Sequence record: LC494302.1
Length of the DNA: 64,000 bases
Source: Escherichia phage SP27
Strand: one strand, 5' to 3'
The first letter of the stretch is position 1; each line of letters begins with the position of its first letter. The position numbers were made by a program, and so were the translations under genes. The notes under the pieces were generated by a model, which was not told where the DNA came from, made no database searches, and was given only the letters and a program-made list of their open reading frames with translations. Of this stretch, positions 31,375 through 59,507 are shown in pieces.

Positions 31375-31617
31375 ATGAAAGTACTGACAGAACTAGAAAT
31401 GTATCATAGATTTAATAAGTACTATCATTTACTTAAGCCTATACAGAGGATTAAATGTCCATTTGAAGAGAAACAGGTTTTAATCTATGAGCACAAGTTC
31501 TTTGTATCATTAGGTACAGATCAACAAGAGTACTATTTGACGTTGTACTTGATTACATTAATAGATTTAATTCACTATAAAACAAAACAAGCTAATAAAG
31601 AGAAATATGAAAACTAA
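31375..31617 (+). CDS. hypothetical small protein, paralog family B
   Basis: start at ATG 31375 (MKVLTELEMY); motif LGTDQQEYYL. Confidence 0.55.
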   Translation: MKVLTELEMYHRFNKYYHLLKPIQRIKCPFEEKQVLIYEHKFFVSLGTDQQEYYLTLYLITLIDLIHYKTKQANKEKYEN

Positions 31618-31951
31618 TATACAACTCAAGGTATATAAATCATTTGAACATACATATATCAAAAGTAGTCTATGTAGAGATGTAATGGATTACAAGGGTA
31701 AGCCATTCACAATTACCTATGATTCTTATGTTAGTGATTTATATATATCATTTGTTAATTACGAAAATAAAATATACAAGCACGTTGATATTAAAGATTT
31801 AAGTACTTTATCTGAAGAGGAATACTTTCAGGAATCATTAGTATGGGATTTAGAGTTTCCTATGCCATTAGTACATAAGATGATAGTACTAATGAAAGAA
31901 TCTAAACAGGAGCCTAATGGTGATTATGAAGAACACACAGTTGAGTATTAA
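31607..31951 (+). CDS. hypothetical protein, paralog family C
   Basis: motif EEEYFQESLVWD. Confidence 0.6.
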   Translation: MKTNIQLKVYKSFEHTYIKSSLCRDVMDYKGKPFTITYDSYVSDLYISFVNYENKIYKHVDIKDLSTLSEEEYFQESLVWDLEFPMPLVHKMIVLMKESKQEPNGDYEEHTVEY

Positions 31952-32321
31952 AAGTACTGATAATATTAAGAGTTATACAAGCTCAAGTACTGTGACAATC
32001 GAAGTGAATTCTCTTAATGCTGGTAATACAGTAGATAAGTTCTTTATTGCTCAAGGGTACAGGAAAGATATTCATCAATATTGTTCAGTATATGGGGAGT
32101 ACAATAGTACTGAAGATATAATTTATTGGTCAACACATCAAGATTATCTAACTAAAATTGGCGTTCCAGATGTTAGTACTTTATCTGAAGAAGAATACTT
32201 TCAGTACAGCTTAGTACATGATTTACATATACCTTTAGGGTTAATCAAGGGTATGCAGGAAGAGGTTCATAAGCTTAAATCCATGAGTAAAGGTACTTTC
32301 ATTAGAACAGTGCAATACTAG
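31917..32321 (+). CDS. hypothetical protein, paralog family C
   Basis: motif EEEYFQYSLVHD; start uncertain (overlaps previous gene). Confidence 0.5.
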   Translation: MVIMKNTQLSIKSTDNIKSYTSSSTVTIEVNSLNAGNTVDKFFIAQGYRKDIHQYCSVYGEYNSTEDIIYWSTHQDYLTKIGVPDVSTLSEEEYFQYSLVHDLHIPLGLIKGMQEEVHKLKSMSKGTFIRTVQY

Positions 32322-32322
32322 C

Positions 32323-32351
32323 TTGACAGTACTTTTCTTTAGTGCTATAGT
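32323..32351 (+). promoter_or_regulatory. internal sigma70-like promoter
   Basis: TTGACAgtacttttctttagtgcTATAGT. Confidence 0.55.
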
Positions 32352-32380
32352 ACCTGTACGTTAATCATAGGGTAGAAATT

Positions 32381-32626
32381 ATGTTAAATTTTTTAAATTT
32401 TCTTATCGTCTTGTGTATTGTTCTTGGGATTGCACCATTTGTATTGTATTTCATGGATTCAGATGAAATGCAGAAGATGAATTGCACAAGGACAGGACAG
32501 AGTAGAGTAGAGACGATTCTTATGCCTGTTACGGTTATTGTTAACAACATGCCCATTACGAACATGGTCCCTACCCTAACGACAACGTACCAGTACTCTT
32601 GTACAGACGGAGAGAGGTGGAGATGA
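32381..32626 (+). CDS. small membrane protein (predicted N-terminal transmembrane helix)
   Basis: N-term MLNFLNFLIVLCIVLGIAPFVLYFM is hydrophobic; downstream of internal promoter. Confidence 0.45.
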   Translation: MLNFLNFLIVLCIVLGIAPFVLYFMDSDEMQKMNCTRTGQSRVETILMPVTVIVNNMPITNMVPTLTTTYQYSCTDGERWR

Positions 32627-32943
32627 AATTTAATATAGCAAAAACATCGAGTATATGTATTTTTGGTTATGCAGAAGAGTTAGGTGATATTGACATTCTT
32701 TTGTACAAAAAGGATGGTGTTATGCATTTCAAGTACCAGGATGAAGAGGCAGACAATTATCTTTTACCTAATTTAGTACAAATGCAGGAAGAGGAATTAT
32801 TCCAGTACAGCTTAATATACGACATTGTTATTTGCACGATGCCAGTACTAATTAGTATTCAAAAAGTGATGCTCGATATGTATGATAAGCTAATACAAGG
32901 TACATCAGGGAGAATCATTGAAATCGATATACAAGACAATTAA
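32623..32943 (+). CDS. hypothetical protein, paralog family C
   Basis: start at ATG 32623 (MKFNIAK) after GGTGGAG; motif EEELFQYSLIYD. Confidence 0.55.
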   Translation: MKFNIAKTSSICIFGYAEELGDIDILLYKKDGVMHFKYQDEEADNYLLPNLVQMQEEELFQYSLIYDIVICTMPVLISIQKVMLDMYDKLIQGTSGRIIEIDIQDN

Positions 32944-33878: not shown

Positions 33879-34082
33879 ATGCAAAAGATTAATACGATAA
33901 CATTAAATGCATTACAGGATTCATTATTAGATAGTATTAAGATGTATTACAATATACATTTGAAGGGTGGTATTGATAATTACGATTATTATTTGAGTTT
34001 AATTACATTTGAGCACCTTTCAGTACAGGACAGGATTTTACATCCTACAAATCCTAGGTATCCATCGATAGGTAAATTATGA
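33879..34082 (+). CDS. hypothetical protein
   Basis: 67 aa; no family motif recognised. Confidence 0.4.
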   Translation: MQKINTITLNALQDSLLDSIKMYYNIHLKGGIDNYDYYLSLITFEHLSVQDRILHPTNPRYPSIGKL

Positions 34083-34627
34083 ATGAGATAAAGTTATTAG
34101 CACACAAGATAAGTACAATAATGCTTATCCTCAATAACAACCATCCTATATCGCATATAGATGGAATCCTGAGTCAGAGGACAGGTGGTAGTTTATATTT
34201 GTCCATAAACGCGGATATCGCAAGGAAATACATTGATATTGATGTTGAAATCGAATATGATACAACGGGGATTGTTGATGTAGGTGCATTAATCAGTTCA
34301 AATCCAGTATCAGCATCCCCATTGACCAAAGATGTTAGTACAGGATTCGAAGGATATTTGTGGTACAATACCAATGATGATTATTTTATATATCAGCATT
34401 CCAATACAAATTATGATGAAGACAAATTTCAGTTCATAGACCCTTATGATGAAGCTGAAGTATTTCAAAAATCATTAATCACAAAACCGCATGAGATGAT
34501 GTATCTAATGTTATTCAGTACAATGCATTTGAATCCATTAATTAAAGGTTTAAAATTTTATATTCAATTAAATTTAGTCCATGTAGTTTATGATTTATTA
34601 ATGCAAGGATATAGTTATGAAGTATAA
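34079..34627 (+). CDS. hypothetical protein, paralog family C
   Basis: motif EAEVFQKSLITK. Confidence 0.55.
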   Translation: MNEIKLLAHKISTIMLILNNNHPISHIDGILSQRTGGSLYLSINADIARKYIDIDVEIEYDTTGIVDVGALISSNPVSASPLTKDVSTGFEGYLWYNTNDDYFIYQHSNTNYDEDKFQFIDPYDEAEVFQKSLITKPHEMMYLMLFSTMHLNPLIKGLKFYIQLNLVHVVYDLLMQGYSYEV

Positions 34628-34928
34628 AATGATGTATACCCCAGATATGATTTATGTTGAATTAGAAGATGATGACGATGGGTGGAATTTGATTTATTCA
34701 AGAAGTTCAGGTTGGTACATGGCACATTTAAATGATTCGATAGTTACAGATTATTTTGTAGATTTCAATACATTATCCGATGAAGAATTGTTCCAACAGC
34801 AATTAGTGATTGACACGGGTGGTTATGATGTCTTATTATTAAAAAAGATACAGAAAGCTGTTATTGATTTTAAGCCCATGATATGGCAAAGGAAATATTA
34901 TGACCTCGAAGTACCATACCAGCAATGA
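34617..34928 (+). CDS. hypothetical protein, paralog family C
   Basis: motif DEELFQQQLVID. Confidence 0.55.
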   Translation: MKYKMMYTPDMIYVELEDDDDGWNLIYSRSSGWYMAHLNDSIVTDYFVDFNTLSDEELFQQQLVIDTGGYDVLLLKKIQKAVIDFKPMIWQRKYYDLEVPYQQ

Positions 34929-35466
34929 AATTCAGTACACCTACGCTAATGCAATCCTTATGGGACAAAAGTTAGCTTGTATTGTTGCAGCCTTATATAA
35001 TGCCCAGAAATATCACAAGCGTCATTTCCACAAATGTATTGGTATTATTCCATCGAAGTACAATACATATATTGCGTGCACGAGTCATTTTGATAAACGA
35101 TTCAATACACCAGATATACCAAATGCCCGTAGTGTTATTGGTCTTTTGGATTTCGCACCTGGTGCTGTTATTGGAAAGAATGATTTAGAGTACGCATGGT
35201 ATAATAAAAATGCCCCGTTAGTAATGGTAACATATGATAAAGAAACGAACAACGCAATAGAGTACAATACATATAAATCAGAGGAAGAATTTTTTCAAGG
35301 TTCAATGCTTGTACCAGTGCGTTTGTTATTTTATAATGTCATAATGAGTACAGTACACAATAGTCCATTACACAAGAATCACAAAATTAATTTCAATTTT
35401 TGTGCTTATGCGATTGATGGTGTGTATGAGTGTTTAATGGAGGTATTGAGTTATGAAGCTGAATAA
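34900..35466 (+). CDS. hypothetical protein, paralog family C
   Basis: motif EEEFFQGSMLVP. Confidence 0.55.
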   Translation: MTSKYHTSNEIQYTYANAILMGQKLACIVAALYNAQKYHKRHFHKCIGIIPSKYNTYIACTSHFDKRFNTPDIPNARSVIGLLDFAPGAVIGKNDLEYAWYNKNAPLVMVTYDKETNNAIEYNTYKSEEEFFQGSMLVPVRLLFYNVIMSTVHNSPLHKNHKINFNFCAYAIDGVYECLMEVLSYEAE

Positions 35467-35794
35467 TACATTTGATATTAATAAGTTAAGAGAATGGTTT
35501 TATAGTATTGAAATTGAAGCCATCCCGTATCATAGATATGAACAATATAATTTAACCAGTATTGATATCAGTGAGTTGTACGCGTATTATCAAAGTGCAT
35601 TAGAGATGCATAAGTTATTTTTGAGTACAGATTTTGTTCTAAATTACAATTTTGAGGAATTTAAAAATTATAATTTAGTACAGAAATATGTAGTAGCAAA
35701 GTACATGTACCTTCAAGGAATTACAAGTATAGTGGAATTCAATACAGTCCTTGCTTTAGTTGAGGTAATTTTATGCAGTACATGTATGATTTAG
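35453..35794 (+). CDS. hypothetical protein, possibly degenerate family C
   Basis: degenerate motif SELYAYYQSALEMH. Confidence 0.45.
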   Translation: MKLNNTFDINKLREWFYSIEIEAIPYHRYEQYNLTSIDISELYAYYQSALEMHKLFLSTDFVLNYNFEEFKNYNLVQKYVVAKYMYLQGITSIVEFNTVLALVEVILCSTCMI

Positions 35795-36279
35795 AGTTCA
35801 GCTTAGATGCTGCATTTAAATATGTTCACAAGATAGAAACAATATACAGTACATTATGTGCAATAAAATCAGTAACAGAAGAGCTTGATGTTGGTGAAAA
35901 ATATCAGGTATGGAATAATACATTTTTAAATAAAGAACGTTGCTCTACGGGGTTTAATATTTTAACATTTAATCCCAGCAATTGTTACCCAGAGAAGCAT
36001 GAACGTTATCCGAATGACGACATGTGGTTTGAGTACAAAGAAGATTGTGATATGTCGTTCATTGAAGTTCCTGATGATTTTAATGCACAAGATTTAACAG
36101 ACGAGTGGTGGTTCCAGCAGAATTTAGTCCACGATGATATTGATTTATTTTTTTATGTAGTATTTAAAATGCTTTATCACAACAATATAGTACAAGATAG
36201 TGTATTTTTTTCATGTCTATATATTGATGATTTGTACAATGAAATTCAAATCAACATGCCCAGAACGCCTGTATCGTAA
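35773..36279 (+). CDS. hypothetical protein, paralog family C
   Basis: motif DEWWFQQNLVHD. Confidence 0.55.
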   Translation: MQYMYDLEFSLDAAFKYVHKIETIYSTLCAIKSVTEELDVGEKYQVWNNTFLNKERCSTGFNILTFNPSNCYPEKHERYPNDDMWFEYKEDCDMSFIEVPDDFNAQDLTDEWWFQQNLVHDDIDLFFYVVFKMLYHNNIVQDSVFFSCLYIDDLYNEIQINMPRTPVS

Positions 36280-36304
36280 GATATGGGCTTTTTTCGTTTT
36301 GGTA

Positions 36305-36333
36305 TTGACATAGAAGACCAAAGCTGTTATCAT
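36305..36333 (+). promoter_or_regulatory. internal sigma70-like promoter
   Basis: TTGACAtagaagaccaaagctgtTATCAT. Confidence 0.45.
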
Positions 36334-36874
36334 GTGTATTCATTTTAAAGGAGAATATATAGTGAGTTTCATAATCCCAAGTACATACGAAGATGCATCA
36401 AGTGCAGTTCATAAGATTCATTATATTTTTAATTTAATTATTAGATCTGCAAAAATTAAAATGTATGCACCTCTTGTGACAAATAATCGAAATGAAGAAA
36501 TTTTTATTAGCACAGACAAAATTATTTTTCCATATTTCAATGAAGATAGATTGTGGTTCATACATTTAGCTGCATTACAAAAATATAAGATGTCAATTCG
36601 TAATAATTTGGTTATACCGTTATATCATCCCGATATTGGAGAGGATGAGTATTTTCAGTACAGCACAGTACACCGCCATGAAGATATCTTTGCTGCTATG
36701 CTTATTGCTAAATTGAACACCGTTGATTTGGAGCAGTACAAATACAATAATAAATCATGTAAGATCATAATCCCTGCATTCATAGCTCTTTATGATTATG
36801 TGGTGCATAACAAAAAAGATGATACATATGCTTTCAATGAAGAGTATTTGGATTTTTTTAAGGATAACATATGA
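36332..36874 (+). CDS. hypothetical protein, paralog family C
   Basis: motif EDEYFQYSTVHR. Confidence 0.55.
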   Translation: MCIHFKGEYIVSFIIPSTYEDASSAVHKIHYIFNLIIRSAKIKMYAPLVTNNRNEEIFISTDKIIFPYFNEDRLWFIHLAALQKYKMSIRNNLVIPLYHPDIGEDEYFQYSTVHRHEDIFAAMLIAKLNTVDLEQYKYNNKSCKIIIPAFIALYDYVVHNKKDDTYAFNEEYLDFFKDNI

Positions 36875-37410
36875 GCAGTACAACAGTATCAAAAGTACAG
36901 AAAGCAATGTCATTCAATGAAATTGGTACATTTAAAGATAAGATCATTGATTGCCTTGAATACATGATTTGTAGTAATATCGAAAGTATCGAGATATTTA
37001 ACAAGACAAATCGCTCTTACCATATGATGTACATTGCAAACAATAATGGTATCATTCCATTTATTTCGGATAGTACAATATGGTACGCATGTGATACGAA
37101 AAAAACCACAATAGGTTTACATTTATTTGAGACACATTATGATCTAATTATTCCTGAGCATTGTATGCAAGAAGAAGAATATTTTCAAATGCAATGTATA
37201 CATTCACCATTAGTGTTGTTTAGTTTATATATTATACCTTATATCACCAAATGTGTTCATGAGAATAAAGCTCCGTGGAATCATGAATTTGTATCGTTGA
37301 AGTTATTGTATAATGTATTAGTAGAATATTATGATTACAGGCACAATGGTACAATCAGTGATGTATGGGATTTTGAATCGCTAAGGGTGAAAACATACAC
37401 AGGTGAATGA
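36871..37410 (+). CDS. hypothetical protein, paralog family C
   Basis: motif EEEYFQMQCIHS. Confidence 0.55.
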   Translation: MSSTTVSKVQKAMSFNEIGTFKDKIIDCLEYMICSNIESIEIFNKTNRSYHMMYIANNNGIIPFISDSTIWYACDTKKTTIGLHLFETHYDLIIPEHCMQEEEYFQMQCIHSPLVLFSLYIIPYITKCVHENKAPWNHEFVSLKLLYNVLVEYYDYRHNGTISDVWDFESLRVKTYTGE

Positions 37411-38026
37411 TATGACCAGAATTAAAATGTATGATTTGATGCAGTACAGTAAAATTGCCATTCCAGTGCTTAATAAAGTGCTGGATGCATTCATTGCCAA
37501 ATACCCTGAGAATTCAGTGTTATGTATTCCATTTAGTGTTCCAGATAAAGATGATATATTCCAAGTGAATGTCAGTACACGTGGTATTACATTACAGCAG
37601 AAATACATGGATACGGAATATTATGGAATAAAGTTGGATTCAGTACAGGGTTCAAAATCAGCCTATGATTTTTTTGTTCCTAATAATATAGAGTCATGGG
37701 AAACAAACATTTCAAAGAAAGATGAAAATGATGTTCCTATTAGTGGTGTGTTCAACAATAAAGTTTTTTATTATTACGAAACCGACAAATTCCCTGAAGA
37801 GTTATATTACAATTCAGAAATGAATGAAGATGTAGATGCATTCATGTTTCAATTATCTTTAGTACATGATATCATTGATGTTAAAGAGTTAAGAGCAGAA
37901 ATCAATTTAGCTAAAGAGTTATCGGACATGCTGCCACCGTTTAGTATGCTTTTTTGTGAAGGTGGTTATTTTTCAAAAGAAGTGTTTGAACATTTCGTAG
38001 ATGTTGTAAAAGGGTTGGATATATAG
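37403..38026 (+). CDS. hypothetical protein, paralog family C
   Basis: motif DAFMFQLSLVHD. Confidence 0.55.
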   Translation: MNDMTRIKMYDLMQYSKIAIPVLNKVLDAFIAKYPENSVLCIPFSVPDKDDIFQVNVSTRGITLQQKYMDTEYYGIKLDSVQGSKSAYDFFVPNNIESWETNISKKDENDVPISGVFNNKVFYYYETDKFPEELYYNSEMNEDVDAFMFQLSLVHDIIDVKELRAEINLAKELSDMLPPFSMLFCEGGYFSKEVFEHFVDVVKGLDI

Positions 38027-38230: not shown

Positions 38231-38749
38231 ATGCATCAACACAAGCATCATTCATATGATTTTGCAATTAACATTATGAAGTTCATTCGAGCGTTGGAGG
38301 ATGGGAAGCTTAGTCATAAGTACAGAAAAGAGGGTAACAATTGGTTCAGAAATGATGATGATGAGTTCAGAAGTCATAAGATTGTTTACAGCAATAATTA
38401 CAGTGCCAATTACCTACAAGATGTAGTGATGTGTTTTGAATACGTGTTGCAGTTCAGGGGTTCAATCCAGGATGAGTTGATGGAGCACATGTACATCAGA
38501 TACCTTCCAATGCTCAAAGATGAAAATGTATTATTAAATTCAATATACCAACGAGTTCGTGAAATTGAGTGCAGGGATATATTAGATACAGAAGAATCGT
38601 ATTTCCAGCAATCCCTGATTTATGCACCTGATTTATTACAGGTACATAATTTGTTTAATACATTACGTCAAAACATCAGTACAGACATATTTTTGTCATT
38701 ATCGGATTATGATACATTTGTCAAAGATTTAGAGGAAATAGGTTTATGA
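38231..38749 (+). CDS. hypothetical protein, paralog family C
   Basis: motif EESYFQQSLIYA. Confidence 0.55.
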   Translation: MHQHKHHSYDFAINIMKFIRALEDGKLSHKYRKEGNNWFRNDDDEFRSHKIVYSNNYSANYLQDVVMCFEYVLQFRGSIQDELMEHMYIRYLPMLKDENVLLNSIYQRVREIECRDILDTEESYFQQSLIYAPDLLQVHNLFNTLRQNISTDIFLSLSDYDTFVKDLEEIGL

Positions 38750-39090
38750 GTATATTTTCGGTTTATATAGTAAACGTCAGTAAAGATGGTAGTTTAATTG
38801 AATTTGATGTAGTTGATAACAATGATAATTCATATGGTATTAAGGTACAGGACAATGATGTACAGTTCAGTACAAGGACAAATTTTGAGAATCCAGTCCA
38901 AGTTCCGAATTTCATAGAAGATGAAGCTGCACGATTCCAATACGAAACGGCATATGACAATGTACATATGCATATTATTATGCAAACGAGTTTAGTTCAA
39001 TTAGTTCCTTTGTTCAGACAAAATATATATGTACATGAAGTGTCGATTAATGGCATTCAAAGTTCCGTTTTGTTCGGTACAAATATGTAA
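38746..39090 (+). CDS. hypothetical protein, paralog family C
   Basis: motif EAARFQYETAYD. Confidence 0.5.
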   Translation: MSIFSVYIVNVSKDGSLIEFDVVDNNDNSYGIKVQDNDVQFSTRTNFENPVQVPNFIEDEAARFQYETAYDNVHMHIIMQTSLVQLVPLFRQNIYVHEVSINGIQSSVLFGTNM

Positions 39091-39100
39091 GGAAAGTACA

Positions 39101-40234: not shown

Positions 40235-40433
40235 AGACGTTTCATTTTTACAGGCCGCTGGGGGGGGTCAAAAAAATTTCCGCTGAAAAACATGCTAAGG
40301 TATATGTTTAATATAAAGTTTTATATTGTGTTTTTCAGAGTACAGTTCATGTTTCCTGAAACAAAAAATACCCCGCCCCCGCAACGTGCTCCTTATATTG
40401 GAGTTTACCTTATTAATTATAGTAGAGATTAAG

Positions 40434-42024: not shown

Positions 42025-42025
42025 A

Positions 42026-47775: not shown

Positions 47776-47782
47776 GGTTTAT

Positions 47783-51654: not shown

Positions 51655-52165
51655 AGATGATATTCTAATTAGACTAATTAAGAGTTTAATAAAGTTCTCA
51701 AATAATGATGTCGATACATACAAAGTAGGGGATATTGAATTCAAATCATTTGGTATGTACGGTGAGGACAAAACATATTATGCGTCAATGAAATTTCAAG
51801 ATTTTCACGAGATGTTAATATCGTTATCATATGAAGATGTTGATCCAAGATGGAGTTCCAGTATTTCACTATCGAGAATGGTAATTCGTAGTAAGCATCG
51901 TTACATTTCGTCAAAGAATACTCCTAACTTGATTAATATTGTGTTGAATGAAAATACCAATCCTATATCTAAACTTGATATCGTACCGTTAACCGATGAA
52001 GTACTTTTTCAATTGAGTACCATTTGTGATGAAGATGTGATATCATGTATGAAAATTTATGAGACGGTTGGGAGTGATATTCACATGAACTATTACCTAA
52101 CGATAGATGGAACATACCTCAGAGATGAAGCTCTAGCGTACATTGACAGTGTTTTACCAAAATAA
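51647..52165 (+). CDS. hypothetical protein, paralog family C
   Basis: start at ATG 51647 (MDKDDILIRL), uncertain; motif DEVLFQLSTICD. Confidence 0.5.
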   Translation: MDKDDILIRLIKSLIKFSNNDVDTYKVGDIEFKSFGMYGEDKTYYASMKFQDFHEMLISLSYEDVDPRWSSSISLSRMVIRSKHRYISSKNTPNLINIVLNENTNPISKLDIVPLTDEVLFQLSTICDEDVISCMKIYETVGSDIHMNYYLTIDGTYLRDEALAYIDSVLPK

Positions 52166-52252: not shown

Positions 52253-52819
52253 ATGAGTACTGAATTAATTAAAGAAGTTACCTTACTTCTGAAGCATTGT
52301 TTTAAGTTCATTCCTGATACTGGTTCACGCCAGTACATTAAAGTTAATGAGAAATATAACATCAATATCCTTGTATCTGAAACTGCGAGCAGTTATGCTA
52401 ACATTGAGTTGGATTCTGAAGAAAAATATACAGTATTACAAATCATAGCAGATGTACAACGTAAACAAGATTACCGTTCTTCATTTTACAACGATTATCT
52501 GTGTGTTTGCTCAAACTTCAGTGAGAATAAAATTGTGTATAAGAATTTATACACACATGAAGTGATTGATACATATAATTATAAAATTTCATCTGATGAA
52601 TACAATGTGCTAATGTTCAACGCAAACCTTTTGTATGATGCCAGTACTGTACGCTGTTTAGAGTTAGCATATAAAATTCCAAAGATCATGGAAAGAAAAG
52701 ATTTGATTCACTTTAAAACTATTTTAAAATACAGTACAAAAGAATTAGAGGATTTAGTACAGGCTCTTAAGAATTTCATTAATGAACATGTACCTGTTAA
52801 ATTCGAGGATGCACAATGA
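52253..52819 (+). CDS. hypothetical protein, possibly degenerate family C
   Basis: weak motif DEYNVLMFNANLLYD; 188 aa. Confidence 0.45.
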   Translation: MSTELIKEVTLLLKHCFKFIPDTGSRQYIKVNEKYNINILVSETASSYANIELDSEEKYTVLQIIADVQRKQDYRSSFYNDYLCVCSNFSENKIVYKNLYTHEVIDTYNYKISSDEYNVLMFNANLLYDASTVRCLELAYKIPKIMERKDLIHFKTILKYSTKELEDLVQALKNFINEHVPVKFEDAQ

Positions 52820-53400
52820 ACCATATCAGAACTAAAATTTTGAGACTCATGCATGACATTGCAGAACTTTCAGAGATTCATGACATTACAGAAATTGTTG
52901 AATTTGATGATTATCGACTGAAAATTGAAAACAAATCCAAACATCGTTTTGGATCAGTTCAGTTGGATGTATATAAAACTTATGAATTTTCTAAAAAAAT
53001 TAAAAGTTCATGGGATACGATTACTATGTACATTCGCACATCCAGAAATCGTGAACGTATTGGTTCTATTTCTTCTAATATGGTATTTGCGAATGCATTA
53101 CATGAAAAAATGAATAAAATTGTAGAATCTGATTTCAGTGAAGATGATGGTTTTATTGGGTTGGATGTTCCACCAGAATTAGACCAAAGTGAAGATATTC
53201 GAGATGCATTCATTTTCCAGAAATCATTGTTGGACAATTACAAAGAATTCGAGTACTTAATGCTTTGTTACGATACTGCAAAAGTTCTTGATTGTGGTGA
53301 ACTAGTTATGTACAATGATTTTATCAATTACAAGACTGATGTTCTGAATACACTACTTCAAAATATAGAATCGGTTAAGGAAAAATATGAACGCTTATAG
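52816..53400 (+). CDS. hypothetical protein, paralog family C
   Basis: motif DAFIFQKSLLDN. Confidence 0.55.
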   Translation: MNHIRTKILRLMHDIAELSEIHDITEIVEFDDYRLKIENKSKHRFGSVQLDVYKTYEFSKKIKSSWDTITMYIRTSRNRERIGSISSNMVFANALHEKMNKIVESDFSEDDGFIGLDVPPELDQSEDIRDAFIFQKSLLDNYKEFEYLMLCYDTAKVLDCGELVMYNDFINYKTDVLNTLLQNIESVKEKYERL

Positions 53401-53965
53401 TTATATGACAGAACGCCATCAGTTATTATATGATATCAGTACAAAAATGTTATCAATTGTTAGTAGTGCAAAAGAAATTGAAAAACAATACCTCATCCGT
53501 GATGTAGCAATTTCATCTAAATGTTGGTCCAATGAATATTACGATCACGGTATTCTTACTATTTCTGGGGCTAGAAATATTTGTATTGTAAAAAATAAAA
53601 ATAAAAGTAATGAAGAGTGTGAGATTATAACCGATATACAAATTAAGGATGATGGAAGTTTTTCACACCACCCATTCCATATTAGTACTATTGGTGTTTT
53701 ATATAATATTAAAGTACTATTCGGTGATGAAGAGTATGTGTTAAAATCTATCAATCCAGAATCAAGTACAGTTGAAGAAGAACTGTTCCAGATGAGCACT
53801 GTTATACCTGAAGAGGTTCTTAGTACTGTTATTTTTTGTAGTTTAATTTATCATGAATACAAAAAGTACCAGTTCGATTTCCACATGTTAGGAACATACA
53901 TCTTCAATAATTTGAATGTAGATCGTTTAACAGCATTAAATGCAGCAATGGATAAGGTGCTATAA
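53387..53965 (+). CDS. hypothetical protein, paralog family C
   Basis: motif EEELFQMSTVIP. Confidence 0.55.
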   Translation: MNAYSYMTERHQLLYDISTKMLSIVSSAKEIEKQYLIRDVAISSKCWSNEYYDHGILTISGARNICIVKNKNKSNEECEIITDIQIKDDGSFSHHPFHISTIGVLYNIKVLFGDEEYVLKSINPESSTVEEELFQMSTVIPEEVLSTVIFCSLIYHEYKKYQFDFHMLGTYIFNNLNVDRLTALNAAMDKVL

Positions 53966-54393
53966 TGACAAGAGATGATTGTTTGTACATATGGGATATA
54001 ATTGAAACTACACTTTCAAATCCAGAAAATTATAAAACAAAAAAAAGACAACGACACAAAATATGGATAGATTTGTTCGTTGAGGGCATACACGCAGTGA
54101 CTATTTGGGATTCACCGAGGGCATCATCATCTACTCTGTTGGACAATGAATGCATTGATTGCATTAATTCCACTTTTCATCTCTACGGTACTACAATTTT
54201 TGGTACATTTCTGGATATTGAAAGTAAAGATGATATTGATTCACTTGCGTTACAATACCAAGTACTATATAATACTAAATTAATTTACGATTTAGTACTA
54301 GCTTCTTATGTGTATAAATTAATGATGAAATATAATCATATTTCTGTTTCAGTTTATACTAAGGATATTCTTTCATTAAGAGACAAAACATGA
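53965..54393 (+). CDS. hypothetical protein, possibly degenerate family C
   Basis: weak motif DSLALQYQVLYN. Confidence 0.45.
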   Translation: MTRDDCLYIWDIIETTLSNPENYKTKKRQRHKIWIDLFVEGIHAVTIWDSPRASSSTLLDNECIDCINSTFHLYGTTIFGTFLDIESKDDIDSLALQYQVLYNTKLIYDLVLASYVYKLMMKYNHISVSVYTKDILSLRDKT

Positions 54394-54899
54394 GTTTATT
54401 AAATGCACGCGAATTGGTTGAGATGTATGAGATTTTGTCTTCATATAAAAATTCTCCAAAAGATGTAATTCTAAACAAAAAGTTCCATGTCAGTGTTGAA
54501 CATATAACAAATATAGATATGATTTCTTTGGTGGAAAGTAATAAGTCAGGTCTGGAGCGTGATATCATGCGTTTGATTTATATTCCTAAACCATCATATA
54601 CTAATGATAGTACTATTAGCAATGAGACATTCATGTATAGTCCTGGTACGGATTCTACTATAGTATCGCTGTCCAATAAATCAATGGATACTTTCCAATT
54701 CATCTATACCAGTACTGATAACATTGAAGAAATTGAATTTCAAAACAATACATTAAGTCCATGTAGTAGTGTTATAACCTTTATGTCATATCTATGGTCA
54801 ACTAAAACAAGTGCTGTTGTATATAGTTCAAATTATACACAAGATAGTATTGTTGAATCATATAAAGTTCTAAAGGAATACTATGAAAATAACAAATGA
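54390..54899 (+). CDS. hypothetical protein, possibly degenerate family C
   Basis: weak motif MDTFQFIYTSTD. Confidence 0.45.
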   Translation: MSLLNARELVEMYEILSSYKNSPKDVILNKKFHVSVEHITNIDMISLVESNKSGLERDIMRLIYIPKPSYTNDSTISNETFMYSPGTDSTIVSLSNKSMDTFQFIYTSTDNIEEIEFQNNTLSPCSSVITFMSYLWSTKTSAVVYSSNYTQDSIVESYKVLKEYYENNK

Positions 54900-55464
54900 T
54901 TTTATTAAAAGTGTAGTACACCCTATGCTTAGTATTATGAAAAAAATACAGAATCTACCGGAAGATAACGATTACAAGTTTAATCGTTTTGATTCAGATG
55001 TGTTTTGTATTGAAATTGAAATTAATAACAATCGTAATTTACATTTAAAATTCAAAGAATCTTCGAGTCCGTACTACAACTTTGATATGAATTTTAAAAT
55101 AGATACTGACATTGAAGAAAACGTAATATCAAATCATACTAGCAAAAATGGTTTTATGCATAGAACTACTATGTACAATAATAAAAATAGTATTATATCT
55201 AAATGGAATCAACAATTCACTAAAATTTGTGAAATTGAATATAATGATTTTGGTAAAGAACATTACTTTCAGTTAAGTACAATTCATGAACTTCCACCAT
55301 ATGATTATGTTAAAACATGGTTTGATATTCATAATATAATTGATGATGCAATCAAACTTCCATTTGGTGTGTCAATATCATATACTGCTCCTAAAACATT
55401 TGTTTTTACTGAAGATATGATTATGAAAAAGATATGGGCAATCATCCCACTTATGATGGATTAA
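54883..55464 (+). CDS. hypothetical protein, paralog family C
   Basis: motif KEHYFQLSTIHE. Confidence 0.55.
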   Translation: MKITNDFIKSVVHPMLSIMKKIQNLPEDNDYKFNRFDSDVFCIEIEINNNRNLHLKFKESSSPYYNFDMNFKIDTDIEENVISNHTSKNGFMHRTTMYNNKNSIISKWNQQFTKICEIEYNDFGKEHYFQLSTIHELPPYDYVKTWFDIHNIIDDAIKLPFGVSISYTAPKTFVFTEDMIMKKIWAIIPLMMD

Positions 55465-55470: not shown

Positions 55471-55496
55471 ACCAGGGGTTGACTCTGGTTTTTTTG
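55471..55496 (+). terminator. possible intrinsic terminator
   Basis: ACCAGgggttgactCTGGT short stem followed by TTTTTTTGT. Confidence 0.4.
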
Positions 55497-55525: not shown

Positions 55526-56077
55526 ATGAACTACAATCATGATCTTTTTACATTATGTGCATCCAAATGTGTTGAAGGATGGGCAGATAAAATCAATATC
55601 ATAATTCATCGATATCTCGTCTTTAGTTCCCGTGCACGAAGTGAGGGGGCTATGGATTTCAAATATACACTATCTATTGATGGTGTAACTATCCATGCAG
55701 ACGAAGAACGTCTGAACATTAATTTGTATGATTCCTGTGTATTTGCTATTCACCAAAAGATGGGGAAAGGATGGGGTTGTAATAACATTAACTCCAAAGC
55801 TATCTTTTGGGTTGGTCACCATCAGACAGTACTTGATCCTTCAATCAAATCTAATCTTTTATCCGATAATATGGTTTATGATTTATTGTACTCCGAAGAA
55901 CAACATTTTCAGTTAAGTACATTGCATGTTCTGGCACAGTACGAGGATTGTTACAAAACATTAGAACTATGCCATTCCCTTGAACTTAAAGATAAATTAA
56001 TACAAGTTTACCCTTCATTCTTTCATGAAGAAGTCCAAAGTACACTAGATCATATTTTATATGGATACGATAAATGA
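55526..56077 (+). CDS. hypothetical protein, paralog family C
   Basis: motif EEQHFQLSTLHV; AAGGAGA RBS. Confidence 0.55.
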   Translation: MNYNHDLFTLCASKCVEGWADKINIIIHRYLVFSSRARSEGAMDFKYTLSIDGVTIHADEERLNINLYDSCVFAIHQKMGKGWGCNNINSKAIFWVGHHQTVLDPSIKSNLLSDNMVYDLLYSEEQHFQLSTLHVLAQYEDCYKTLELCHSLELKDKLIQVYPSFFHEEVQSTLDHILYGYDK

Positions 56078-56676
56078 GAAAAAGTTATCAAGAAGCTATT
56101 GACTTAATTCGTGAAGTTATCAAGGTGGCTCCTGCTGCTATTGAGTTCAAGAAGTCCATATACAAGAAGTATGGGTCAATGTCGAGTATGTGCTTTCAAA
56201 AGAAACGTAGAGCATTCACTACCCAGTACTGGAATGATTCTATCATCCTGAGCAATGAGACTCAGCGTATTTTAACACTAGAATCTGAACCTAATGAGTA
56301 CGGGGAAGGAAACATTTGTGTACCTGATTATGATGAAATTAACTTCAACTGCGGTGATTTTGAAACAACATTATTACTTCATGAGGGTTATCCAGAAGGT
56401 GATGTATTAGCTGAATACAATCCAAAAACTAAAATTCTCAAAAGAGGAATTCAGTTCACTATTAATAACAAAGATGATGTTGAAGCAGCACTGATGCAAC
56501 TGAGTACAAGTGAACCTATCACTATTAGTGTAGAAGAGTTATGGGGAATTATTTCAGTACTCAATGAGTGCTATAAAGTAAAATCATTGCGTAATCACAC
56601 CCTTATATTGCATACTAATATGGCAAATATAAAATGTAAGCACATTCAAGAAATGGTGGTTCCAGATGGACTTTAA
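56074..56676 (+). CDS. hypothetical protein, paralog family C
   Basis: motif EAALMQLSTSEP. Confidence 0.5.
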   Translation: MRKSYQEAIDLIREVIKVAPAAIEFKKSIYKKYGSMSSMCFQKKRRAFTTQYWNDSIILSNETQRILTLESEPNEYGEGNICVPDYDEINFNCGDFETTLLLHEGYPEGDVLAEYNPKTKILKRGIQFTINNKDDVEAALMQLSTSEPITISVEELWGIISVLNECYKVKSLRNHTLILHTNMANIKCKHIQEMVVPDGL

Positions 56677-57250
56677 AGAAATTGAAAGTAAATTAAAGTA
56701 CTTCAAAGATATCAAACTTCTTTGGGAAAAGTATAAAATTGATTACAATTTCAGTGATGATGAGACAATAAAATACATTGAGATTAATATCAAAATCAAG
56801 TTCAAGAATAATAATTATGGTGAAGTAAGCTTAAATCATGCTGGTATATCACTCAAGGACTATGATGGTTCAACACTCGCATATTTCGACTTCACACCAG
56901 AACCAGGTGAAACACTACTTAGTGAGATAAATTCCTATGACATGGAAGTGTTCGGCGGGAATCCGTTACTGTTCCGACTTTCTGAAGAGTGGAGTGAAGA
57001 ATACTACACTTACAAAGATGGTGTAGTACTTGACATTCATGGAGAAGTTGTGAATGACTTGGAAGAACGTTTGTTCCAAGAATTGTGTGTTTCAAATACT
57101 TCATATGCATACAATCATATCCTTGACATGTTTGATTTATATAGTAAAATAGATGCTGAAATGAATGCACATGGTATTCATTACCTTACAATTAACGACT
57201 ATGCTCAACTCGAAACCGCTGTGAAAGCATTGACTAAAGTACTGAAATAG
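56666..57250 (+). CDS. hypothetical protein, paralog family C
   Basis: motif EERLFQELCVSN. Confidence 0.5.
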   Translation: MDFKEIESKLKYFKDIKLLWEKYKIDYNFSDDETIKYIEINIKIKFKNNNYGEVSLNHAGISLKDYDGSTLAYFDFTPEPGETLLSEINSYDMEVFGGNPLLFRLSEEWSEEYYTYKDGVVLDIHGEVVNDLEERLFQELCVSNTSYAYNHILDMFDLYSKIDAEMNAHGIHYLTINDYAQLETAVKALTKVLK

Positions 57251-57259
57251 GAATGAAAT

Positions 57260-57673
57260 ATGAAACTGTATCATGCGAGTACTGTAAAAATTGATAACTT
57301 TTATATCCCGTATGGTGGCCTTCATATGGGAGGTAAACACAGTGCTTTAGAAGCTGCCTTACGCAAGCTGAGAAGCCCACTAAACGTTGTTGACGCATGT
57401 ACAGTATACTTGCATACCTTAGAAGTTGATGTTGATAACGTGCTTCTGTGTGAAGATTTAGGCAGTGATGATGAGTGGCGTTCACTTATTGAGAATTGCA
57501 CGGCTCAAGGTTATGATGCTGTTCAGTACAAAAATGATTACGAGCCAGACAATGTTCCTAGCTTTATGATTTGGGATACATCTAAAATTCGTATTATTGA
57601 AGTTGATGCGATGCATATGGATGAAGCTGAAATGATCATCGAAGATTTCCTTGATGAATATGAAGGTGTATAA
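57260..57673 (+). CDS. hypothetical acidic protein
   Basis: 137 aa; no family motif recognised. Confidence 0.5.
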   Translation: MKLYHASTVKIDNFYIPYGGLHMGGKHSALEAALRKLRSPLNVVDACTVYLHTLEVDVDNVLLCEDLGSDDEWRSLIENCTAQGYDAVQYKNDYEPDNVPSFMIWDTSKIRIIEVDAMHMDEAEMIIEDFLDEYEGV

Positions 57674-58191
57674 TGATTGAACCTATGACAGTACTAGCAC
57701 GTACTAAATTATTATTGAAGATTGCTGAAATATTCACTGTTCTTATGTACAATAATCAAGACATAACTGACTTAGGTATTAAGCAACCGTGGCAAATTAC
57801 AAAGTTCACGGCGTTCCACCGATTGTCATATAATGGTGAAACTGTTCTTGATTTTAATCCAAAAGCCACGTTCGTGAATTACGCTGCATTATATGGATGT
57901 AATGGTGGATTAACAAATGACTTCACTGAAATAAAAGTACAATCAGAATCATTAGAATTTAATGACTTAATATATCCAGAATTTAAGTTAACAGAAGAAA
58001 CACTATTTCAGTACTCACTAATTATAAAAGATGTATATGATCTTGAGTACTACAAAGAGTTAGTAGATATTTTTAAGAATACTCGACTTTCAAAAGATAT
58101 TGTGATATTCTGGTATGTTGAGTATGTTACAGAGGAATTGCTAGAAGAATTTCTTCTAAATATGACAGCTATAAAGGAGAAGTTATGTTAG
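57673..58191 (+). CDS. hypothetical protein, paralog family C
   Basis: motif EETLFQYSLIIK. Confidence 0.55.
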   Translation: MIEPMTVLARTKLLLKIAEIFTVLMYNNQDITDLGIKQPWQITKFTAFHRLSYNGETVLDFNPKATFVNYAALYGCNGGLTNDFTEIKVQSESLEFNDLIYPEFKLTEETLFQYSLIIKDVYDLEYYKELVDIFKNTRLSKDIVIFWYVEYVTEELLEEFLLNMTAIKEKLC

Positions 58192-58658
58192 ATATTTTAG
58201 GAAACATCGACACTGCAAATTATTTTATTCAAGATGCATTGTTTAATACAGTACAACAAGGTTTAGAAGTTCACCACAATGTTTATCAGGGTGATGGATA
58301 TTTTGTTGATATTATCGAGACACGTAAAAATACATTTAATGTTAACATTACGACGCTTGGAAGACAGAACATTGCACGAATTTTAGTAAGTAAAGATGAA
58401 ATAGTACTGAGATACAGTGCTAAGTTTATGTTGACTTATAAGAAAAAAACTGATATGTTCAGTACTAATTTATTTGATGAGCCATTTGACCTTGAAGATA
58501 TTGAAGCTACTTTCTTTACTCAAAGTACTATGGTAAAATACACTGATGTTCAATTTTCTGCTGATGTAATGTCAGAAACATTACAAATGATCAAGGTATT
58601 ATTTTATGCATTTGAGCAATTTAGAGAAGAAAGAAACAAGGTTAACAACCACAGATGA
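58185..58658 (+). CDS. hypothetical protein, paralog family C
   Basis: motif EATFFTQSTMVK. Confidence 0.5.
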   Translation: MLDILGNIDTANYFIQDALFNTVQQGLEVHHNVYQGDGYFVDIIETRKNTFNVNITTLGRQNIARILVSKDEIVLRYSAKFMLTYKKKTDMFSTNLFDEPFDLEDIEATFFTQSTMVKYTDVQFSADVMSETLQMIKVLFYAFEQFREERNKVNNHR

Positions 58659-59019
58659 ACTAATAGAGGCGATCACTAAGGAGTCAAAATACCATAAAGG
58701 GATTCGTCTATACTTTATAGATACTGGTTCGATGGAAGGTACATACATTTATGGTTCACAATCGTTGTCTTATGATGCAATGCCAAATAAACATGTTAAA
58801 ATCTTTTTAGGTTCAAGTAATAAAACTTTCTTGACAATTAATGATAAAAACGTTATTATGAATTCGTTGGGTCATGATAAGGTGGAAATTGATCTAAACA
58901 CGCTGGAGGATATTGATTTTTTTCAATACGAGTGTTTAGGTGTTGACTTACATGGCATTAGTAGCGATATGATAAAATCATTAATCAAATATTTCGAAGG
59001 TGTTCATAAATGTATCTAA
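58606..59019 (+). CDS. hypothetical protein, paralog family C
   Basis: motif DIDFFQYECLGV; start uncertain. Confidence 0.5.
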   Translation: MHLSNLEKKETRLTTTDELIEAITKESKYHKGIRLYFIDTGSMEGTYIYGSQSLSYDAMPNKHVKIFLGSSNKTFLTINDKNVIMNSLGHDKVEIDLNTLEDIDFFQYECLGVDLHGISSDMIKSLIKYFEGVHKCI

Positions 59020-59507
59020 CTAAATCAATGAAAAATTCATTTGATAAAATTAAGAGTTGTCTTGATGGAGAAAATATTACAAGTGTTACACAAACTGCTG
59101 ACCAAATTCAAAGCAGTTCAAGTGATTGCACTGTTATTTTTGGTTTACATAGTCTGCGTTTATCAATAGTAAATAATATTGACAACACTGCTATTGTAAT
59201 CACACCATGCAATATTCAAAATGAGAATGGTGTATATCTTCATCACATGGGAACAGTATTTCACATTTTCAATTCAAACGAAAACATTGTTAAGGAATAC
59301 AATACTCTTAATATTGATTCAGGTGAATTATTTCAAATGAGTACTTTGTACTCATGTAATTTTACAGATACTTCATGTATTTTGCCATTTTTCTTGGAAA
59401 TTATTAAGAAAATGGAAAATTTAAAACGTGAATACAATAAAGAAATGGTTCCTGAAGCTATATTAAATATTACTAATGCTATAGAGAAGTATAATGCAGT
59501 GACTTAA
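59010..59507 (+). CDS. hypothetical protein, paralog family C
   Basis: motif SGELFQMSTLYS. Confidence 0.55.
   Translation: MYLTKSMKNSFDKIKSCLDGENITSVTQTADQIQSSSSDCTVIFGLHSLRLSIVNNIDNTAIVITPCNIQNENGVYLHHMGTVFHIFNSNENIVKEYNTLNIDSGELFQMSTLYSCNFTDTSCILPFFLEIIKKMENLKREYNKEMVPEAILNITNAIEKYNAVT

Follow-up and report, generated by a model that had tools for sequence, protein, structure and literature searches.

A large tandem array of paralogous genes with a shared FQxS-type motif in Escherichia phage SP27

Introduction

Poxviruses and African swine fever virus carry terminal multigene families with a role in host range and immune evasion, and in the poxvirus ankyrin/F-box proteins a shared C-terminal motif binds one host complex. 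In phage T4, the internal protein IPI* has an anti-restriction role. A lineage-specific expansion in a jumbo phage, comprising about 35 zinc-ribbon paralogs, has been described for Bacillus phage G (Iyer et al.), and the paper on phage RaK2 states that nearly 10% of the RaK2 proteins are paralogues. Here we analyse a stretch of 64,000 nucleotides from Escherichia phage SP27 (sequence record LC494302.1; the window), in which positions 31607-59507 hold a tandem array of paralogous genes, designated family C. The RaK2 statement probably includes family C; neither the RaK2 paper nor the jumbo-phage survey (Iyer et al.) describes the family, its motif or the array. Big viruses are already known to carry large paralog arrays towards their genome ends; the novelty here lies in the family itself, found in a coliphage and with what appears to be a new fold.

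An 8-kb probe from the array matched 35 phage records, with Escherichia phage BAU.Micro_ELP-22 at the top (97.7% identity), and all genes beneath the match are labelled 'hypothetical protein'. From sequence comparison, the window is assigned to an Asteriusvirus jumbo coliphage of the PBECO4/121Q/phAPEC6 group. Read from left to right, it consists of the family A array, a terminal repeat (end at 25622), family B (25848-31617), family C (31607-59507) and a few conserved genes, followed by a dam methyltransferase just past the window edge. Positions 26-25622 align with the right end of the ELP-22 record, which stops at window 25622 and whose final ~21 kb repeat the start of the record. A direct terminal repeat of ~21 kb has been experimentally demonstrated for Asteriusvirus (PMC13070987). 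As judged from the alignment, it corresponds to window 5000-25622, which places the start of the family C array downstream of the repeat.

Family membership

Membership was tested on the 163 non-nested + strand open reading frames (ORFs) of the window. A firm member is an ORF that matches the family hidden Markov model (HMM) at E<1e-3; the working definition adds an FQxS-type motif that follows acidic residues and lies some two-thirds of the way along the protein. An all-versus-all phmmer comparison groups 31 ORFs in one component, an HMM iterated from the window proteins converges on 37 ORFs, and an HMM that includes outside relatives recovers 38 ORFs at default settings (40 with filters off). 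The motif is present in 38 of the 38 firm members, and all supported members are found on the + strand within 31607-59507. For ORFs missed by the HMM, small profiles were built from orthologs in four related genomes and compared with the family profile (profile-profile test). Eight further ORFs of the interval and one outlier (2182) match at E 3e-5 to 3e-3, in the motif segment only; the controls (13 of 13 ORFs) are at E 0.26 or worse. Four ORFs (38746, 58606, 52253, 58185) are borderline, and the profile-profile test gives no family signal for 62211, 33338, 35453, 46480, 57260, 59550 and 60181. Some of the weak members, for example 50552, are orthologous to motif-bearing RaK2 genes.

The first-pass annotation had described the interval as an array of about 50 paralogous genes lying head to tail with frequent overlaps. 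The array is real, as phmmer, the HMM and a motif enrichment far past chance agree, and so is its compact arrangement: counted from longest-ORF start codons, overlaps occur at 49 of the 64 junctions (4 nt long in 13 cases), and no more than 9 gaps are longer than 40 nt. The figure of about 50 holds as an upper bound, because 38 members are firm and the rest are motif-segment matches or borderline; a generous reading gives roughly 47-51. At least 10 ORFs of the interval are non-members, including the family B genes 32918, 33106, 45549 and 45748 and the membrane protein 32381; the other ORFs listed as non-members are 33338, 33879, 35453, 38028, 39835, 40025, 46480 and 57260. Two genes outside the interval had also been called family-C-like. 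The gene at 2182-2841 is a plausible outlier, with a motif-level match (E 4.5e-5) and no significant HMM score, whereas membership of 62211-63059 is unsupported (profile-profile E 0.11).

The 38 firm genes together span 18 kb, and Shine-Dalgarno-like sequences are found upstream of most family genes. The encoded proteins (103-207 aa) are soluble and mostly acidic, with a median isoelectric point (pI) of 4.75 and a median net charge of -9.4. The members are as follows, with coordinates, strand, form, protein length, HMM E-value and motif.

Firm members of family C
31607..31951, +, short form, 114 aa, HMM E 8.2e-14, EEEYFQESLVWD
31917..32321, +, 134 aa, HMM E 1.6e-13, EEEYFQYSLVHD
32599..32943, +, short form, 114 aa, HMM E 3.4e-12, EEELFQYSLIYD
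34079..34627, +, 182 aa, HMM E 2.6e-21, EAEVFQKSLITK, phrog_19795
34617..34928, +, short form, 103 aa, HMM E 4.4e-10, DEELFQQQLVID
34900..35466, +, 188 aa, HMM E 1.1e-16, EEEFFQGSMLVP
35773..36279, +, 168 aa, HMM E 1.2e-18, DEWWFQQNLVHD, phrog_34516
36332..36874, +, 180 aa, HMM E 3.1e-9, EDEYFQYSTVHR
36871..37410, +, 179 aa, HMM E 2.2e-15, EEEYFQMQCIHS
38231..38749, +, 172 aa, HMM E 2e-17, EESYFQQSLIYA
39029..39652, +, 207 aa as longest ORF (later annotated start in relatives), HMM E 6.4e-14, DESLFQYSTMYD, phrog_30243
40326..40811, +, short form, longest ORF from TTG 40326 (the true start is probably ATG 40431, judging from relatives of 125-129 aa), HMM E 1.2e-14, DAALFQEALVFD
40808..41167, +, short form, 119 aa, HMM E 8.9e-16, TAELFQESLVFD, phrog_15629
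41164..41523, +, short form, 119 aa, HMM E 7.7e-12, DGELFQAALVFD
41533..42024, +, long form, 163 aa, HMM E 3e-28, EEYYFQQSTVYD, 57% identical to 42936
42026..42496, +, 156 aa, HMM E 3.4e-24, EEFYFQQNTIYE
42493..42936, +, 147 aa, HMM E 1e-23, EEYYFQQSLIFN
42936..43427, +, 163 aa, HMM E 1.8e-30, EEYYFQNSTLYN, phrog_9317
43402..43845, +, 147 aa, HMM E 1.8e-29, EEYYFQNSTLYD, high-confidence AlphaFold model (pLDDT 91.8, pTM 0.87; see below)
43842..44156, +, short form, 104 aa, HMM E 1.3e-8, ETFLFQESLVWD
44156..44629, +, 157 aa, HMM E 2.5e-23, EDAYFQYSTIYP
44595..45041, +, 148 aa, HMM E 8.3e-30, EEGYFQGSTVYN
45929..46489, +, 186 aa, HMM E 8.9e-13, EENIFQNSVLHD
47088..47450, +, short form, 120 aa, HMM E 5.5e-12, EDELFQESLVWD
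47440..47775, +, short form, 111 aa, HMM E 1.2e-10, EGELFQESLVFN
47735..48319, +, 194 aa as longest ORF, HMM E 2.1e-27, QEYYFQLSLLFP
48379..48855, +, 158 aa, HMM E 3.1e-29, EEEFFQYSTVYP, phrog_12674, first AlphaFold model (pLDDT 70.9)
48852..49337, +, 161 aa, HMM E 2.3e-25, EEMYFQGSCIHD
49327..49689, +, short form, 120 aa, HMM E 2.4e-12, EEELFQQSTIST
49673..50086, +, 137 aa, HMM E 3.7e-12, PDELFQYSLVFP
50074..50568, +, 164 aa, HMM E 8.3e-25, EESYFQNSLIYT
51091..51654, +, 187 aa, HMM E 1.5e-24, ESAMFQLSLIHN, phrog_22855
51599..52165, +, 188 aa as longest ORF, HMM E 1.9e-12, DEVLFQLSTICD
53387..53965, +, 192 aa, HMM E 9.3e-12, EEELFQMSTVIP, phrog_38467
54883..55464, +, 193 aa, HMM E 1.2e-12, KEHYFQLSTIHE
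55526..56077, +, 183 aa, weakest HMM match (E 6e-4), EEQHFQLSTLHV, linked by phmmer to relatives of 54883
57673..58191, +, 172 aa, HMM E 2.2e-11, EETLFQYSLIIK
59010..59507, +, last gene of the array, 165 aa, HMM E 3.2e-8, SGELFQMSTLYS, RaK2 ortholog L002 30237-30734

Probable divergent members (profile-profile E)
37403..38026, +, 207 aa, E 3e-5 in the motif segment only (DAFMFQLSLVHD)
45038..45574, +, 178 aa, E 1.5e-3, HMM E 8.5e-4 with filters off, EEQCFQLSCTDP
50552..51094, +, 180 aa, probable member with motif lost, E 3.5e-4; the RaK2 ortholog L002 23242-23826 carries WEEEMFQLSLVV
52816..53400, +, 194 aa, E 4.1e-4, DAFIFQKSLLDN
53965..54393, +, 142 aa, E 2.1e-3, DSLALQYQVLYN
54390..54899, +, 169 aa, E 1.3e-4, HMM E 9.8e-4 with filters off, EEIEFQNNTLSP, RaK2 ortholog L002 25522-26013
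56074..56676, +, 200 aa, E 3.1e-3, EAALMQLSTSEP
56666..57250, +, 194 aa, E 1.2e-3, EERLFQELCVSN

Borderline candidates and possible outlier (profile-profile E)
38746..39090, +, borderline, 114 aa, E 7e-3, HMM E 1.8e-3 with filters off, EAARFQYETAYD
58606..59019, +, borderline, 137 aa, E 0.015, EDIDFFQYECLG, weak RaK2 ortholog L002 29786-30265
52253..52819, +, borderline, 188 aa, E 0.079 at the motif position
58185..58658, +, borderline, 157 aa, E 0.085, 40% identity to RaK2 L002 29347-29835
2182..2841, +, possible outlying member in the family A array, 219 aa, E 4.5e-5 over 21 residues (EEDLFMYSTVID)

Motif and predicted fold

The family motif has the consensus [ST]-E-E-x-[YLF]-F-Q-x-S-[TL]-[IV]-[YH]-[DN]. 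Its strict form, [ED][ED]x[YLFMIW]FQx[STC], occurs in 22 of the 64 ORFs of the interval and in none of the 99 ORFs outside (mean of 0.01 in shuffled proteins). The median relative position in the protein is 0.66 (range 0.49-0.74), in agreement with the motif having been placed about two-thirds into the protein by the first-pass annotation. In both alignments of the family (37 and 107 sequences) F-Q is invariant and the Ser nearly so, with the remaining columns only 11-14% identical. The motif is also the most constrained segment, with a ratio of nonsynonymous to synonymous substitution rates (dN/dS) of 0.17-0.18 versus 0.32-0.36 in the N-terminal part. The codons of the invariant residues vary freely (F: TTT 22, TTC 16; Q: CAG 25, CAA 13), and the conserved Ser is encoded from both the AGY and the TCN codon boxes. 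Selection therefore acts on the protein and not on a DNA repeat. The same codon usage rules out a DNA-level repeat or recombination signal at the motif, and together with the enrichment statistics and the HMM significance it rules out a chance or low-complexity origin. A reading of Q-x-S-L-x-F as a motif of the beta-clamp-binding or PIP (PCNA-interacting peptide) kind was set aside, as the spacing is unlike QL[SD]LF and the segment is folded, not a disordered tail.

Two subtypes can be distinguished. Long forms (~147-207 aa) have an N-terminal helix and usually the motif YFQxST[IV]Y, whereas short forms (103-137 aa) are without this helix and usually carry ELFQESLV[FW]D. AlphaFold models were obtained for two window members, 48379-48855 (37 sequences) and 43402-43845 (147 aa, 107 sequences). 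The former is mediocre except around the motif (mean predicted local distance difference test score, pLDDT, of 70.9); the latter is confident (pLDDT 91.8; predicted template modelling score, pTM, of 0.87). Both have the same order of secondary-structure elements. The confident model consists of a helix (residues 3-21), seven strands within 29-88, a helix at 90-94, the motif helix (100-106), a core helix (112-126), a strand (132-135) and a final helix (136-146). The motif lies in the best-ordered part, at a helix-turn-helix corner with pLDDT 96-98. Mapped onto the model, conservation is concentrated at residues 98-111 (TEExYFQxSTIY), and minor conserved positions are found in two strands (YIxY and FYxDL) and along a single face of helix 1. 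Upstream of the motif, residues 22-58 are variable and indel-rich (occupancy 0.64).

A Foldseek search against BFVD finds only uncharacterised proteins of phages 121Q, SP27, RaK2, Yersinia fHe-Yen9-04, Serratia BF and Cronobacter GAP32. The independent BFVD model of a 121Q paralog superposes at a template modelling (TM) score of 0.90, and members from 121Q, SP27 and RaK2 range from 0.57 to 0.90. A profile search of the PDB sequences at E up to 1 gives 0 matches. The members thus share one predicted alpha/beta fold with no detectable counterpart among solved structures. Together with the HMM and the concentration of conservation in the motif, the predicted fold upholds the earlier proposal of one multigene family on a common scaffold. 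Two details of that proposal change. The hydrophobic segment noted after the motif is present, but it is the core helix (model residues 112-126) and no membrane span; and the N-terminal halves, described as highly diverse, do contain the indel-rich region upstream of the motif, but the long forms share a helix with conserved A10, I13 and I16. An assignment as membrane proteins was rejected, as the sole stretch with a 19-residue Kyte-Doolittle mean above 2 is the spurious N-terminal extension of 40326.

Occurrence and evolution

An exhaustive search of 1.84 billion protein cluster representatives with the family HMM gives 127 matches, all of 65-210 aa, nearly all with the motif and none fused to another domain. 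As far as can be told from sequence, the family is confined to RaK2-like jumbo phages, in which every placeable relative is found, and the whole RaK2-like clade (phages of Escherichia, Klebsiella, Cronobacter, Serratia and Yersinia) appears to keep it. RaK2 has a syntenic array with 27 HMM-supported members, located upstream of the same dam methyltransferase and cytidyltransferase genes; the copy number in four Asteriusvirus genomes is 38-40.

The family is nameless in Pfam, NCBIfam, PADLOC, PHROGs and the searchable literature, in line with the first-pass annotation, which did not recognise it. Pfam gives 0 matches for 10 members, and at a cut-off as loose as E 1 any one Pfam family is matched by at most 2 of 107 members. 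Searches of NCBIfam and PADLOC with family members return noise only. In PHROGs, 9 of 10 tested members match clusters at E 1e-56 to 1e-141, all of 'unknown function', and the tenth (31917-32321) has a weak match only (best phrog_13866, E 3.6e-7). The clusters phrog_9317, 12674, 13866, 15629, 19795, 22855, 30243, 34516 and 38467 contain the same proteins, with weak cross-hits between clusters; the family is split there into many unconnected, unnamed clusters, and the shared motif, fold and array organisation are unrecorded. The searchable literature on PBECO4, Asteriusvirus, RaK2, 121Q and jumbo-phage paralogs contains no description of the family, motif, fold or array.

The paralogs diverged long ago: identity reaches 57% in the closest pair, and for most members BLAST detects no paralog. 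The clusters 40326-41523 and 41533-43845 look like Asteriusvirus-specific tandem duplications, and the part of the array at 50-59 kb is collinear with RaK2. Between the two genera, family orthologs are 22-40% identical, compared with 58-64% for the non-family genes 57260, 59550 and 61418, which lie within the array or next to it. The pooled dN/dS of the family is 0.30 versus phAPEC6 and 0.28 versus vB_Ec-M-J, similar to family B and other local genes. The family is under purifying selection, and dN/dS in these two genome comparisons reveals no gene-wide or regional positive selection. Compared with vB_Ec-M-J, 7 of the 36 matched family genes are only 40-57% identical (dS 0.72-2.85), next to adjacent genes at 92-99%. 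This mosaic divergence points to the exchange of old alleles rather than fast in-place change, and suggests a cassette-like exchange between strains. The array had been called rapidly diversifying. The term holds only in part: the purifying dN/dS values close to those of neighbouring genes, the mostly ancient paralogs and the partial collinearity with RaK2 speak against it, and the low identity across genera and the seven replaced-like genes speak for it.

We note further differences among close relatives. Extra array genes missing from the window are found in ELP-22 (L001 14122-14628) and vB_Ec-M-J (L005 10090-10431). In phAPEC6, G17 and Sharanji, other genes stand in place of 40326-40811; in phAPEC6 the set is gp445c-447c, one of which is annotated 'amidohydrolase 3'. 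Gene content therefore turns over within the array. The non-family gene 57260-57673 (137 aa, N-terminus MKLYHAS..., phrog_11632 of unknown function, no Pfam match) is embedded in the array and is far better kept than its neighbours (58% identity to RaK2, dN/dS 0.08-0.18).

Transcription signals and virion proteome

The strongest sigma-70-type promoters of the array, four in number, and three terminator-like hairpins fall in its few gaps:

32323..32351, +, sigma-70-like promoter in an intergenic gap, TTGACA-17-TATAGT with TG extension, 11/12
36267-36288, +, terminator-like hairpin, 9-bp stem and T run
36305-36333, +, sigma-70-like promoter after the hairpin, TTGACA-17-TATCAT with TG
48316..48345, +, consensus sigma-70-like promoter in an intergenic gap, TTGACA-18-TATAAT with TG extension, 12/12
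52164-52183, +, terminator-like hairpin, 8-bp stem and T run
52197-52225, +, promoter after the hairpin, TTTACA-17-TATAAT with TG
55471..55489, +, terminator-like hairpin in an intergenic gap, 7-bp stem with 4 GC pairs and T7 tail

Directly after the promoter at 32323 lies a gene (32381-32626, phrog_8826) for a strongly hydrophobic protein of 81 aa (19-residue Kyte-Doolittle mean 2.77), which is 98-99% conserved between strains (dN/dS 0.07-0.08).

The terminal repeat contains 12 perfect TTGACA-16/17-TATAAT promoters on the + strand and ~12 TTGCAA-16-TATAAT sites; its promoter-like sites number 97, versus 67 +/- 8 in shuffled sequences. Given this excess, the phage appears to rely heavily on host-type promoters at this end of the genome. 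In the related phage PA5oct, infection depends on the host RNA polymerase and small terminal-repeat genes are expressed early (PMC7318152). The first 50 kb of PA5oct contain no family C member, so its RNA-seq gives no direct timing for the family.

Orthologs of the array in phAPEC6 are within gp404c-gp466c. The phAPEC6 virion comprises 62 proteins identified by electrospray ionisation tandem mass spectrometry (ESI-MS/MS; PMC7247149). In this one phage, analysed by one method, none of the 62 is a gp between 348 and 548, and hence none is an array ortholog.

Functional interpretation

Our preferred interpretation, to which we assign a probability of about 0.45, is that family C encodes early, non-structural accessory effectors, in which the motif is a structural corner and the variable beta region confers specificity. 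The array genes would be transcribed early by the host sigma-70 RNA polymerase, as suggested by their position right downstream of the ~21-kb terminal repeat and by the promoters and terminators, which would split the array into at least 5 units. The proteins may then act in host takeover or defence evasion, a role that the first-pass annotation had also put forward. Such a role fits the context: the neighbouring terminal repeat, sigma-70-type promoters, absence from the virion proteome and acidic proteins. Based on the models, the motif [ST]EEx[YF]FQxS[TL][IV][YH][DN] would mainly be a structural keystone of the scaffold, with the Ser/Thr as N-cap, the acidic residues at the helix start, the aromatic pair pointing into the core and the Ser...Asp capping the next helix. 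Each paralog may owe its own binding surface, and with it its own target, to the indel-rich beta region upstream of the motif (~22-58 in the 147-aa model).

Several points weigh against this interpretation. No homolog of the family members has an assigned function. The timing is derived from the promoter consensus and from PA5oct, whose first 50 kb are free of the family. Promoter-like counts in the array are no higher than in shuffles (99 versus 115.5; 117 versus 125), so that the sole informative feature is that the strongest sites fall in the rare gaps. The dN/dS values show no sign of an arms race at whole-gene or regional level. The virion proteome covers one phage by one method, and low-abundance packaged proteins could have been missed. 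The proposed structural role of the motif is derived from helix-capping rules rather than from model coordinates, and an invariant Gln would be unusual if the role were structural alone. Nor does a pI near 4.7 set the family apart from cytosolic proteins in general.

A bolder form of the effector interpretation, possible but in our view doubtful, sees the array as a germline-encoded repertoire of ~40-50 binders on one previously unseen alpha/beta scaffold, each of which would neutralise a different host factor or defence system by way of its variable beta region. The E-E-x-Y-F-Q-x-S corner may dock all of them to a common host hub, and the array would be to phages what the multigene families near the genome ends are to poxviruses and African swine fever virus. 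Two more specific assignments are not supported. DNA-mimic anti-restriction proteins of the Ocr or ArdA type would call for fold or sequence likeness to these proteins together with an extreme, patterned negative charge, a combination that the family does not show. Poxvirus-type ANK/PRANC adapters are not supported by homology, as 107 members contain no such Pfam match; only the organisation is alike.

In the main alternative, the motif would be less a structural element than a docking surface for one shared partner, be it a host hub, a protease or chaperone, or a phage machine, with the variable region picking cargo or targets, in the manner of the poxvirus ankyrin/F-box proteins. An invariant F-Q and nearly invariant Ser amid otherwise dissimilar proteins, the clustering of conserved polar residues (E, E, Q, S, D) in one 14-residue stretch and the low dN/dS of the motif are what such an adapter would predict. 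The same residues, however, lie in the best-ordered part of the model, and by general helix-capping rules each of them has a plausible capping or core-packing role. As there is furthermore no PRANC/F-box or other Pfam match, we consider an adapter function unlikely.

Less probable still is a phage-internal role, in which the proteins are assembly chaperones, accessory factors of replication or transcription, or subunits of a many-subunit intracellular structure. The stable copy number (38-40) and purifying selection across Asteriusvirus, the partial collinearity with RaK2 and the restriction to one phage clade with unusual virion features (PMC7247149) are compatible with it. It accounts poorly for an identity across genera far below that of embedded and adjacent non-family genes, for a position and promoters like those of early accessory regions, and for the absence of the proteins from the phAPEC6 virion; allele replacement between close strains is atypical of core developmental genes.

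A short conserved signal is common to the otherwise variable internal proteins of T4-type phages, and family C might by analogy consist of packaged or ejected proteins (T4 internal or phiKZ inner-body type), the motif being a capsid-targeting or prohead-protease signal. The capsid of phAPEC6 has an inner body (PMC7247149). Virion or internal proteins are nevertheless rejected as very improbable, because the phAPEC6 virion proteome lacks gp404c-gp466c; moreover, the sole conserved signal is internal (0.49-0.74) and part of a folded, structured helix instead of N-terminal, and the genes are in an early-type region far from the head genes.

The motif E-E-x-Y-F-Q-x-S formally fits the cleavage site of the tobacco etch virus (TEV) type, E-x-x-Y-x-Q|(S/G), with complete TEV-like sites in several members, such as EEMYFQGS (48852) and EEGYFQGS (44595), and the proteins could be substrates or decoys of a Gln-specific protease. 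We take this likeness as a coincidence and give the idea hardly any credence, because the motif forms a helix in the best-ordered segment of the model (pLDDT above 95), and because a tblastn search of 50,697 phage records with TEV NIa, which does not cover remote 3C-like folds exhaustively, returned nothing at E up to 1; in addition, conservation runs five residues beyond the would-be scissile bond. To our knowledge, no Gln-specific cysteine protease is known in these phages. Finally, a non-functional or selfish expansion of decaying duplicates or filler, for which one may cite the many members that have no detectable close paralog and the degenerate motif in several array ORFs, is largely refuted by the selection analysis (dN/dS ~0.3 in two independent genome comparisons), by intact frames and stable copy number in four Asteriusvirus genomes and 27 members in RaK2, and by compact, largely overlapping junctions with Shine-Dalgarno-like sequences before most genes.

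Genomic surroundings

Family B (25848-31617) is a second array, consisting of 29 paralogs of 63-96 aa linked by phmmer (phrog_4148) that are basic (median pI 8.7). Four copies are located inside the family C array (32918-33136, 33106-33372, 45549-45770 and 45748-45939), and RaK2 has family-B-like genes (LGTxFQ[DE]N) directly upstream of its own family C array. Base composition changes at the boundary of families B and C (window 28000-34000), where the AT skew falls from ~0.18-0.23 to 0.02-0.08; the GC skew increases to 0.14-0.22 across the family C array. Family A (566-4548, phrog_11711) comprises two linked sets (10 and 4 ORFs) of ~60-80 aa, head to tail, in the unique region that precedes the terminal repeat, with the possible family-C-like gene 2182-2841 among them.

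The genes of the terminal repeat (5000-25622) are widely spaced, as though each were served by a separate promoter. A 28-nt hairpin, AAAGGGATTGACTCCGGTCAGTCCCTTT, followed by GCTATTATAT, recurs at 19019-19056, 22011-22048 and 24267-24304, with a variant at 14984-15021. A -35-like TTGACT lies in the hairpin stem, and a -10-like TATTAT is found in the tail; both together may be a combined terminator/promoter element reused between terminal-repeat genes.

After the array follows a conserved block (59550-63059) of genes for proteins of 157, 284, 97, 128, 101 and 282 aa with unassigned function, collinear with RaK2 ORF440-445 (27-64% identity). The gene 62211-63059 in this block has an FQ-like segment, PDELMFQLMLTG, that is present in RaK2 too. 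Within the array, the gap 40234-40326 contains a run of G8 followed by A7 (GCTGGGGGGGGTCAAAAAAATTT), which marks either a tract prone to slippage or a hotspot of sequencing errors. The whole 64 kb contain no tRNA genes and no Rfam families at the gathering threshold.

Comparison with known systems

The 38 firm genes make up ~5% of the ~350-kb genome, an estimated 7% or so when probable members are included. The family is directly testable because the host is E. coli, and several such phages are under development for therapy. If members inhibit host proteins or defences, they would add many new phage-host pairs at once and help to explain the host range of the group; phages would then, like large eukaryotic viruses, evolve large paralog repertoires on one scaffold. 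If the repertoire interpretation is true, dozens of new inhibitors of E. coli proteins would be readily available from the array. If the role is phage-internal, the family still defines a new protein fold and a clade marker.

Of the known systems, the cleavage sites of TEV NIa and picornavirus 3C proteases (ENLYFQ|S and LEVLFQ|GP) resemble the motif at the letter level in four positions, namely P6 (E), P3 (aromatic), P2 (F) and P1 (Q), and differ in that the family C motif is in a predicted buried, structured context and no cognate protease was found. The T4 proteins IPI-III and the variable IP locus are likewise variable small proteins that share one short conserved signal; theirs is N-terminal, cleaved and directs packaging, whereas the family C motif is internal and structured, and the proteins are not found in virions. 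The pre-early genes of T5, the immediate-early genes of T4, the host-takeover genes of SPO1 and the terminal-repeat blocks of PA5oct have in common with family C the position with respect to terminal repeats, sigma-70-type promoters and small non-virion proteins of unknown function. These blocks consist mostly of unrelated single genes; family C is one expanded family, for which early timing is inferred. The zinc-ribbons of phage G are also a large paralog family in one jumbo-phage lineage, and family C differs from them in having another fold, an acidic character and no nucleic-acid-binding signature.

Parallels in organisation are offered by the poxvirus ankyrin/PRANC F-box proteins and the multigene families MGF110, MGF360 and MGF505 of African swine fever virus. 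Family C has no sequence or fold relationship to them, and its bacterial host is without their ubiquitin machinery. In common with these families it consists of tandem, diverged paralogs near a genome end, with a short conserved motif in the C-terminal part, a variable remainder and copy or allele variation between strains.

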